Part shown: one piece after another, positions 42,001 to 45,000 of the stretch
Position numbering within the stretch: the stretch's first letter is position 1
Layout of the letters: every line of letters begins with the position of its first letter
DNA from: a virus
Lineage: Duplodnaviria; Heunggongvirae; Uroviricota; Caudoviricetes
Length of the DNA stretch: 64,000 bases
Virus record (IMG/VR): IMGVR_UViG_2693429637_000011
Reading direction: 5' to 3' (one strand)
Program-made: the position numbers

Positions 42001-45000
42001 CCGCCATTCTTAATGCTCCAGCCCTGCGCAGCAGCGTCTCCGGCTGTCGGCAACAGGGAGATTGTGCGTATGGATGCATCTTCAGACGGCCCCGATGGCG
42101 TGTCGCCGCCGGGCGAGGGTTTGATTTCCGGTGCCTTACCACTAATGAAGGCTAAGGTGCGACCGGCTACGTTCAGAATAGCAGTTGCCATACGATCGGG
42201 AATAATGCCACGACGCGCCCATGAGCTGAAATGCGTCGGGCGATTTGATGATACCCAGTTTTTGTTCGTTCGGGATGCCGAACCGTAATAACCAGACCCG
42301 GCAATATCAGGATCTTCTGACGGGTTGTTTGTCGGTGTATTAACTCCGCTACCATCGGTCATAAAGGGAACAAAATAAATCTGCTGGGATTCTTTACCTT
42401 TATATGCACCATATACCACTTCATATTGCGTACCGTGTTCTTGTTTCCACGCGTATGTCGTGTCGCCACAAATCCAGGGGACTGATGCCGGACTTCCACC
42501 GTGACACTGCGCCGCCAGCCCGGCAAGGTCAGCACGGAACTGCTGTACCATTGCAAGAAATGCTGCTGGCTGCTGGGCGTAACTGGCATTCGTCATATCG
42601 AATTCCCCCTGCATCCAGCATATCGCCAGCAAAACGTTTTTCGGGTTTTTCTGCAATGCTGCCTTCGTGCGGAAAAGCAGATCCTGATATAACGGCTTAC
42701 CCACTCCCCAGCGAGCCGAATCCTGACTGGCCCCCGTGGACTCGCTGAATGTCCCCTCCGTGCCCTGGGTGAATGCCGAACCACCACGACAGCATGGTAC
42801 CAGCAGGATCCCCGCATTATTAGGGATATACGGAAGCAGTTTTTTGGCAATATGTAAGCCCTGTCCGACACAGCCGTACTGCCCTTTGCTCAGGTCAGCC
42901 CGGGGATGGTTAATCGTACTCATATCCTGAACATCATGCAGACAATGGTCAGCAGGAATGATGTCGTTAAATACGCATACTTCACCACCGGGAGTCACTG
43001 TGTTACGACGGGCCAGTTGCTTAATGCGCGGATGGGGCGCATCGTATGAATCCGGAAGCGGAAGACCTTCACCGTAAGCCATGGCATTGGATTGCCCGGC
43101 CAGTACGATGACGTAGTACCACTCCGGCTCAGTTGCACCACTGACGACCACATCACCTTCTGCTGCAATCGCCTGCATCAGGGTATAAGGGGTTATGGCC
43201 ACCGGACTACCAAACGGCTGCCAGCCCTCCTTCAGTTTTTGTGTCAGTCGTTTCGCAAGGTCTGACGGCGATGCCGCCCTGACCACGTCATAGTGTTTAA
43301 ATGCCATGAATCCTCCCGGCCGGGATAATATTGTGAGTAAAATAAGGAGCGGGCTGAAGTCCGGAAGTTACAGGACAATGGCAGAAGAGAGACGACAGCC
43401 CGCAATTCGAAAAAGACCGCGCAGTTGCGCAGAGTGATTACTATGGGGTATTATTCGCCAGCTGAAATATTACTTCACGTTTTATTGTTTATTCCTTGCC
43501 GCCCGCGTCTCCCAGCGCGGGCTTTTTTTGCCCACAAGAAAACCCCTCCGGAGAGGGGCTAAAGCCGCGTATCTGTATCATCATGCACATGGTGCCGGGT
43601 GCCTCCCGGTGAGTTCAGCCCGGTGCCACTAAACCCGCGTCATTCTCGTTTTGATAATCAGAGATTATACCGTCACCAGTCGCCCCTCCGCTCAGGGGGA
43701 TTCACCATGCGAAATTTTTTTAACAAATGCCCAGTCTGACAGGCAACTGTCAACTTACTGAATTGTGAGCAACATAGCATTTAACGGGGAACCTGTTTTC
43801 TGCAGTAAAAAGGCCCACCGGAGCGGATGGGCCTGGAAGGATGAGGTAGCCTGAGTTTAACGGACACTCCTTCCTGAAATAGAATGGCATCAGAAGGAGC
43901 TAATAATGAGCAGAAAAACCCAACGTTACTCTAAAGAGTTCAAAGCCGAAGCTGTCAGAACGGTTCAGCAGAGTGATTACTATGGGGTATTATTCGCCAG
44001 CTGAAATATTACTTCACGTTTCATTGTTCATTCCTTGCCGCCCGCGTCTCCCAGCGCGGGCTTTTTTGTCCATAAGAAAGCCCCTCCGGAGAGGGGCTGG
44101 AGAGTGGCGCTATGTGCCATTGCATGGTGCCGGGTGCCTCCCGGTGAGTTCAGCCCGGTGCCACTAAACCCGCGTCATTCTCGTTTTGATAATCAGAGAT
44201 TATACCGTCACCAGTCGCCCCTCCGCTCAGGGGGATTCACCATGCAGTTTTTTCTAACAAATTCTCATCCGGGCAGACAACATTCAACTGACTTAATTGT
44301 GAGGTATGTAACATTCCCGTTGAACGGATACAAAAAAAGCCAGCCACCAGGGGAGGCTGGCAAACTCGTAGAGCAAAATGCTGTTACGCAAACTTCGTTA
44401 CAGGGTTATCCTGCAATACTTAAAATATACAATATTTAGAAAACTAATAGTGCCATATGAGATTTTTAAGATTTTGTTATTAATTGCGGTCGTACCTTCC
44501 TTTCTGTGTACTTTCCGTATAGCTCACAGGATTCTGGGTACAAAAAAACCCGCGCATCGGCGGGTTCGGCTGCGTGGCAATGTAACCACTCTTATCATGA
44601 TATGCAGATTTTTACGATCGTAAACTATTTTTTCGCTGATAAAATACAGAGCTTCTCCCTCCCGGCAATTCACGCTCAACATACCGATCCATCTCAAGCC
44701 TCACTCCCAGCATCATCAGCATGCCTTCAACAATCCCCTCCGCTTTGTGAAGGCGTTTACCTATACAGGTGTCAGAGCACCCATGTTTCCGTGCCAGCGC
44801 CATGAACGTCTCCCCCAACACGTAGTAATCAACCAGCAAGTCATGCAGATCGCGATTGTTCCGGTAAAGGCGGGCTATGCACCCGCATATCACCATCGCA
44901 TCATCGTCACAGCACTGTGGACGTGATTTTACTTTTTCGGGGATCAGTCCCTTAAATCCGGCAGCAATGGGCGACCATGTAACATCCTCATAGTTATTTA

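Follow-up and report, generated by a model that had tools for sequence, protein, structure and literature searches.

The interval between the late antiterminator gene Q and the esterase gene nanS-B was analyzed in a 64,000-nt stretch (hereafter the window) of the IMG/VR virus record IMGVR_UViG_2693429637_000011, assigned to the Caudoviricetes. The interval, 43308-44611, is exactly the gap between the start of nanS-B (43307, minus strand) and the Q stop codon (44612-44614); prophage genes here read on the minus strand, Q from 45046 to 44612 and the next large gene, nanS-B, from 43307 to 41454. We conclude that this gap is probably a toxin-free late leader similar to that of phage 933W, made chimeric by the insertion of a block from a donor prophage. 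Its 1,304 bp comprise 644 bp of native leader, one extra base, 125 bp of the insertion sequence (IS) IS600, and 534 bp of donor leader. Judged by alignment, the interval is a mixture of two prophage lineages, one of the Escherichia coli O104:H4 type and one of the Shigella sonnei/55989 type. All parts belong to known families, and the rearrangement appears to be a structural variant, private to its source, of a prophage type already known.

Composition of the Q-to-nanS interval

Two blastn matches place the native part of the interval in a prophage type known from E. coli O104:H4: window 34001-39526 corresponds to the O104:H4 locus L001 1000-6525 at 99.91% identity, and window 43968-46000 to L001 6224-8256 at 99.95%. 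The O104:H4 locus runs without a break, yet 302 bp of its sequence (L001 6224-6525) appear twice in the window, as copies identical to each other and to the O104:H4 sequence. Between these perfect copies, within the unit that holds the small RNA (sRNA) gene STnc100, lies an inserted block of 4,441 bp (39527-43967). In O104:H4, Q and its native neighbor nanS-A are 765 bp apart, and this gap contains no IS and nothing more than a StxS-type leader and a single STnc100 gene. In the collection, 1,145 indexed blocks contain the exact nanS-A protein; in 10 of the 10 places shown it lies 765 bp from Q. The arrangement free of stx, transfer RNA (tRNA) genes, and IS recurs in at least 60 further complete E. 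coli genomes.

By its alignments, the inserted block derives from a defective lambdoid prophage like those that S. sonnei carries. Six of the nine chromosomal locations shown, and also IMG/VR contig L008, match the window from 43966 down to 40379 at 100% identity (3,588 bp); two of these six records, CP010829.1 (FORC_011) and CP109775.1, are named in papers as S. sonnei. The other three places are without the upstream IS600 and match 43842 down to 40379 at 99.94%. A 56-aa open reading frame (ORF) fusing the start of a lysozyme gene to ISSso4 is indexed in 196 blocks, of which 75 hold contigs longer than 1 Mb. The same late segment is found with neither IS, at 98.6% identity, in the prophage of E. 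coli 55989 (L002 3230-6414), where tRNA genes and a different Q lie upstream.

Only parts of the two IS elements are present in the window. IS600 is represented by nt 1-125, compared with 1,264 bp in the full copy of contig L008; its orfA starts at an ATG at 43906, translates to MSRKTQRYSKEFKAEAVRTV, and then runs into the repeat, so the element is cut internally. ISSso4 is represented by about nt 1-1134, with a truncated istA and no istB. IS600 is complete at the same site in S. sonnei-type genomes, both IS insertion junctions occur together in contig L008, and contig L009 holds ISSso4 at full length beyond the window breakpoint (2 mismatches in 1,141 nt). Because IS600 is complete in such genomes and ISSso4 is full length in L009, both elements had inserted into the donor prophage earlier, by the usual route, and were then cut internally as the block entered the O104:H4-type prophage. 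The window holds two nanS genes (both with DUF1737, SASA, and DUF6645 domains) and two P21-type holin genes, with a complete lysozyme gene only in the distal set. The parts of the native prophage and of the block are as follows.

Native prophage
44612-45046, minus: antiterminator gene Q, 144 aa, 933W type (Pfam PF06530, E = 2e-50; annotated as antiterminator Q family in the O104:H4 relative)
44611 to 43968, minus: native late leader, 99.95% identical to the O104:H4 prophage, with pR'/qut, StxS-type leader, tR', and one STnc100 gene
44597-44624, minus: late promoter pR', overlapping the 3' end of Q (promoter scan, TTTACG-16-TATCAT; equals the annotated 933W pR', L005 1667-1694)
44576-44583, minus: qut site, mapped from the 933W annotation
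44333-44590, minus: predicted StxS-type leader RNA, about 258 nt from pR' to tR', mapped by alignment
44068-44273, minus: STnc100 copy 2, native to the O104:H4-type prophage (Rfam RF02076, 165.1 bits, model positions 1-206)
44098-44079, minus: terminator of STnc100 copy 2 (terminator scan)
43968-44269, no strand: right 302-bp copy (R), 0 mismatches to 39225-39526 and 0 to L001 6224-6525, colinear with O104:H4
39225-39526, no strand: left 302-bp copy, holding most of STnc100 copy 1
39530-39325, minus: STnc100 copy 1, its upstream promoter-like region replaced by ISSso4 (Rfam RF02076)
37193-39103, minus: nanS-A, 636-aa esterase, native neighbor of Q in relatives, within the 34001-39526 match to O104:H4

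Inserted block and its borders
43966/43968, no strand: junction J2; position 43967 is an extra A where IS600 has T and O104:H4 has C (three-way comparison)
43842-43966, plus: left-end fragment of IS600 (IS3 family) with left inverted repeat (IRL), orfA promoter region, and 20 orfA codons (125/125 identity to IS600 in L003 and L008)
43841 to 43308, minus: donor leader with STnc100 copy 3 and the nanS-B leader, 100% identical to the defective S. sonnei prophage
43811-43834, minus: intrinsic terminator upstream of STnc100 copy 3, donor sequence (terminator scan; colinear with 55989 and S. sonnei)
43530-43739, minus: STnc100 copy 3, from the S. sonnei/55989-type prophage (Rfam RF02076, 161 bits, full model)
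43560-43541, minus: terminator of STnc100 copy 3 (terminator scan)
41454-43307, minus: nanS-B, 617-aa SASA-family esterase (Pfam DUF1737, SASA, and DUF6645; DNA 100% identical to S. sonnei chromosomes)
41306-41088, minus: donor holin gene (Pfam PF04971 and PF07041 jointly for this gene and the next)
41083-40769, minus: DUF1327/YdfR gene
40713-40661, minus: first 18 codons only of a lysozyme gene, donor late segment
39527-40660, minus: 5' fragment of ISSso4 (IS21 family) with IRL and truncated istA, cut at about nt 1134 (99.9% to annotated ISSso4; Pfam rve)
39526/39527, no strand: junction J1; position 39527 is an extra A matching neither parent

Two side observations concern the IS elements. 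The orfA promoter-like site of the IS600 fragment (43857-43885) now points into the repeat, giving a 32-codon chimeric ORF, MSRKTQRYSKEFKAEAVRTVQQSDYYGVLFAS; a transcript of about 175 nt driven from it (43857-44061, plus strand) is possible, ending at a plus-strand terminator and antisense to the flank of STnc100 copy 2. In the defective prophage itself there are two IS600 insertions, one upstream of STnc100 and the other at nt 282 of ISSso4; every combination of the two is represented among the S. sonnei-type chromosomes L014-L022 and the contigs L008 and L009, a pattern that implies recombination, repeated insertion, or loss.

The IS600 fragment and the absence of stx

The backbone is that of a 933W-type phage. 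A Q933-type antiterminator is followed by pR', qut, and tR', and further downstream by a nanS-p esterase gene, then holin and lysozyme genes; from 45183 to 44333 the window aligns with 933W over 851 nt without gaps at 95.9% identity. Homology to 933W extends from Q to the second terminator, skips 933W 1959-3748, and resumes at STnc100. The skipped stretch, which in 933W consists of a methyltransferase remnant, pT, ileZ, argN, argO, and stx2AB, is absent from the window, where tR' is joined to the STnc100 unit through about 30 nt (about 44333/44302). ARAGORN found no tRNA gene in the 64-kb window and there was no Rfam tRNA match, the ileZ-argN-argO set included. The best tblastn score with 933W StxA2/StxB2 was E = 0.14, at the level of noise and elsewhere in the window, and blastn with the 933W cargo (1959-3748) gave no match.

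The initial annotation had described the gap as an stx-less interval of repeats and IS debris in a 933W-type backbone, either a scar of IS-mediated toxin loss or a toxin-negative relative that never carried the cargo. Every feature it listed is present where it was placed, including the missing stx and tRNA genes, the two minus-strand terminators 3' of Q, the late-repeat copies, and the IS600 left end, which ends after codon 20 plus one base of orfA. The label given to them fared less well: the repeats and terminators correspond to two sRNA genes already described, STnc100 and StxS, and the IS600 piece is the border of a 4.4-kb insertion reaching 39527. A toxin-negative relative does describe the Q-proximal half, which is 99.95% identical to the IS-free, stx-free, and tRNA-free O104:H4 prophage.

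That the IS600 fragment marks an IS-mediated deletion of the tRNA genes and stxAB from a toxigenic 933W-type prophage is extremely improbable. The interval does sit where 933W has ileZ-argN-argO-stx2AB, and IS600 inserts near the tRNA genes in some relatives, such as L003; however, a distance of 336 bp separates the IS600 fragment from the cargo-free junction between tR' and STnc100, and stx-negative relatives have this junction at 99.95% identity and without any IS, the very finding that the initial annotation had named as evidence against a recent IS-mediated deletion. The IS600 terminus (the IRL, at 43842) adjoins DNA colinear with the uninterrupted 55989 prophage, and because this flank is colinear no deletion occurred at the IS600 end; the sequence beside the element is thus not a deletion scar, the cargo-free junction being elsewhere. 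Moreover, the same IS600 insertion is complete in S. sonnei, in another prophage with another Q, and no remnant of stx or of a tRNA gene was found in the window. Since the cargo-free junction is common to IS-free relatives and the IS600 end is colinear, the IS debris is not a toxin-loss scar, and the absence of stx and tRNA genes predates it and is independent of it. Intermediate forms, with tRNA genes and without stx, exist in phi296, TL-2011a, and PPwrbA.

These results remove a tempting inference: IS debris beside an stx-less Q region need not mean that a toxin was recently lost. The leader free of stx and tRNA genes is instead a common and stable prophage type that still bears StxS-type and STnc100 sRNA genes.

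Junctions and origin of the insertion

The two parents share only 0-2 nt at J1 and J2, and since neither border of the block is an IS terminus, transposition did not make the borders. A composite IS600 transposon was considered as a vehicle, two direct IS600 copies flanking the block in S. sonnei, and was rejected: the left border is internal to ISSso4 and no border coincides with an IS end. Also rejected was the idea that the IS fragments are contig overhangs of k-mer length, the ISSso4 piece being 1,134 nt long and the junctions being without shared sequence. Both junctions (39522-39531 and 43962-43971) read TC-A-GC, and J2 also makes CAGCAG, which is either coincidence or a joining signature.

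Tentatively, we suggest that one event, with two switches of replication template, may have copied the block: having left the target where R ends, the fork would copy the donor and then return to the target where R starts. Such switching would account for the 302-bp duplication, the near lack of microhomology, and the lone extra A found in both junctions. A real structure built in several steps is an unlikely alternative origin: two O104:H4-type copies, in a hybrid or tandem arrangement around a defective prophage, could have been trimmed by two independent illegitimate deletions with a 302-bp overlap arising by chance, or a circular intermediate could have integrated by homologous recombination in the STnc100 unit. 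Lambdoid prophages in one cell share STnc100/nanS leaders that are 90-94% identical and able to recombine, STnc100 arrays of two to five copies in relatives show the region to be recombinogenic, and the prophage encodes Bet, Exo, and RecE functions. Such a route nonetheless calls for at least two rare events together with large deletions; the R copies have not diverged, and the likeness of the two junctions favors a single event or a single mechanism. A wider generalization of template switching, which we consider quite unlikely, would make the STnc100 unit a recurrent breakpoint at which late cargo (nanS and holin here, tRNA genes and stx elsewhere) is copied between co-resident prophages, the duplication in the window being a fresh example and the arrays of two to five copies older products.

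Several points weigh against our reading of the interval as a 933W-like leader interrupted by a donor block. A donor of the exact form, with IS600 upstream of STnc100 and ISSso4 uninterrupted to nt 1134, was not seen among the S. sonnei chromosomes examined, where ISSso4 is cut at nt 282. The template-switch mechanism is deduced from junction anatomy only, and expression of the StxS and STnc100 genes at this locus is predicted from sequence. The end points are too diverged to trace the O104:H4-type leader to a phi296-type one by deletion, or to an ancestor with tRNA genes and stx by an older, IS-free deletion. Finally, searches of 5,426 complete E. coli genomes, GTDB representatives, IMG/VR, and Joint Genome Institute metagenomes did not find J1 or J2 (exact 37-39-mers included, 0 matches), which leaves one assembly as the only source for these novel junctions and hence for the structure. 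Exact look-up of the five ORFs that span the junctions likewise found none on record.

The absence of both junctions from every other sequence searched is also what an assembly or scaffolding chimera would leave, in which a contig of the defective prophage was placed between two contigs ending in the STnc100 unit. Both junctions fall in sequence that is present more than once (IS600, ISSso4, and the STnc100 unit), and in the draft L032 (AASPKC010000015.1), which has the exact nanS-A protein, a contig ends 168 bp upstream of nanS-A inside the STnc100 unit. This is nevertheless very unlikely, as graph misjoins need shared k-mers and here there are 0-2 nt of homology and one untemplated base at each junction, while the ISSso4 fragment far exceeds a k-mer overhang. 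The 302-bp copies are, in addition, exact and in register with the relative, as a real duplicative insertion leaves them. The contig end in L032 is, in its own right, as expected if the STnc100 unit is repeated in that genome. The rearrangement is a strain-specific case in which an intact prophage and a decayed, resident prophage have exchanged DNA, and matters mainly for strain typing and for the study of late-region reshuffling in lambdoid phages.

Leader sRNA genes and comparison with known systems

Terminator-like sites number 12 in the whole interval, against 1.6 expected from shuffled sequences (terminator scan). The two that follow Q, an internal leader hairpin at 44567-44546 and tR' at 44363-44333, pair off with the two annotated in 933W, which map by alignment to 44564-44542 and 44361-44333. 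The transcript from pR' to tR' has been described as a 258-nt RNA in which RNase E cleavage at GU/AUU (+173) yields the regulatory sRNA StxS (Sy et al. 2020, PMC7547250). Here, the corresponding span is about 258 nt, the GUAUU motif falls at +173 (44419-44415), and the leader differs from that of 933W by about 10 mismatches in 306 nt, its 3' part being identical save for the terminator loop. Because the mapped length, the position of GUAUU, and the 3' fragment agree with StxS, what this stx-negative prophage retains is, on alignment, a StxS-type gene. In a lysogen, polymerase starting at pR' would halt at tR', giving the StxS-type RNA of about 258 nt. Upon induction, Q-modified polymerase would read through tR' and would need to pass six minus-strand terminators within the interval. 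Only after transcribing nanS-B, the additional holin gene, the DUF1327 gene, and what is left of ISSso4 would it arrive at nanS-A and the full set of lysis genes.

The late repeats are best annotated as sRNA genes as well. Each is a full-length Rfam match to STnc100 (RF02076), the three copies scoring 165.1, 161.0, and 160.7 bits over model positions 1-206, compared with a curated gathering score of 47 bits; copy 3 is about 90% identical to copies 1 and 2. Each STnc100 unit is characterized by a conserved upstream box (CTCACAATT...TTGAC; TTGACA-containing) and a terminator of its own. Copies 2 and 3, with their upstream boxes kept, may be transcribed independently, and copy 1 has lost its box to ISSso4. 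Sigma-factor binding has been reported at the Salmonella STnc100 copies (PMC10794520); a search by eye for a sigma-54 motif upstream of STnc100 here revealed none that was convincing. An STnc100-family sRNA has been described 75 nt downstream of stx2 (PMC12370729, 2025), in agreement with 933W, where a gene of this family is located between stxB and nanS-p, close to both. STnc100 and the related PasD sRNAs have been linked to prophage esterase genes, and copies of the related PasA and PasD sRNAs were found to be distal rather than in tandem (Zhu, Shabalina, and Storz, bioRxiv 10.64898/2026.05.13.724894).

Further observations concern the surroundings and the copy number of STnc100. A conserved plus-strand element (43441-43529 and 43980-44068) converges on the 3' end of STnc100 copies, in the position of AsxR in 933W, and ends in a strong terminator (43501-43522 and 44040-44061); beside the STnc100 copies the AsxR and AgvB models gave no Rfam match even at E <= 1, and only a sub-threshold OmrA-B-like match was seen (E = 0.037). 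In the stretch from the tRNA genes to nanS, E. coli OkiPb01696 has five STnc100 copies, four of them head-to-tail at a spacing of about 260 bp (L003 2089-3068 and 4828-5040), and E. coli 55989 has two copies in the same place (L002 6102-6311 and 6589-6779).

Elsewhere in the window, inverted repeats of 74-99% identity between 1-4334 and 46532-50290 (ORF6N, DUF551, and hok-region genes) show the early region of a second prophage, in opposite orientation, at the left end. Dense 9-bp-phased repeats coding for collagen-like Gly-X-Y (families D1, D3, and D7) occupy 22947-23829 on the minus strand, probably in a tail fiber gene. Rfam matches above the gathering score at 47284-47471, 49349-49523, and 377-466 comprise C4 antisense RNA, isrK, sok, and sRNA-Xcc1; the C4/isrK/sok set is also present in the O104:H4 relative. 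Direct repeats of 41-49 nt (families D8 and D11), two of them 100% identical and 90 bp apart, lie in the early-left region at 52757-53681.

Among known systems, the Stx2a phage 933W (NC_000924.1, 20.2-25.1 kb) resembles the window in Q, pR', qut, and both terminators, in the StxS leader between pR' and tR', and in having STnc100 directly upstream of nanS-p. It differs in the methyltransferase remnant, pT, tRNA genes, and stx2AB that it carries between tR' and STnc100, and in the AsxR antisense RNA beside STnc100, none of which are in the window; its STnc100/nanS part is only about 78% identical. The stx-negative Traversvirus phages phi296, TL-2011a, and PPwrbA are 97.4% identical in the Q region and 93.4% in the STnc100 unit; between tR' and STnc100, however, about 470 bp remain, with the methyltransferase remnant and three tRNA genes.

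The prophage of O104:H4 2011C-3493 (NC_018658.1, about 2,540,600-2,553,600) is 99.9% identical and colinear from Q through pR'/tR', one STnc100 gene, nanS-A, DUF1378, DUF826, holin, lysozyme, Rz, and heptose phosphatase to terminase, and likewise has no tRNA gene, stx, or IS between Q and nanS. To this the window adds, within the STnc100 unit, the 4,441-bp block and the 302-bp duplication. Beyond this region the window prophage is a mosaic, because its identity to E. coli 23CRST047 varies, being 100% over 1-20000 and only 99.2-99.7% over 32917-53662.

The defective lambdoid prophage beside the trp operon of S. sonnei (FORC_011, CP010829.1) shares with the window the 3,588 bp at 100% identity, the IS600 and ISSso4 sites, nanS-B, holin, DUF1327, and the 18 lysozyme codons, whereas its own IS600 is complete, a second IS600 interrupts its ISSso4 at nt 282, and its Q belongs to another family (PF03589, 273 aa) with a methyltransferase gene upstream. 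As for the STnc100/PasD family, the window copies agree with it in their full-length covariance match and in their place beside esterase genes and downstream of the stx position. They differ in arrangement: two copies lie 535 bp apart in one leader and a third 4.2 kb off, compared with the distal copies described by Zhu and coworkers.

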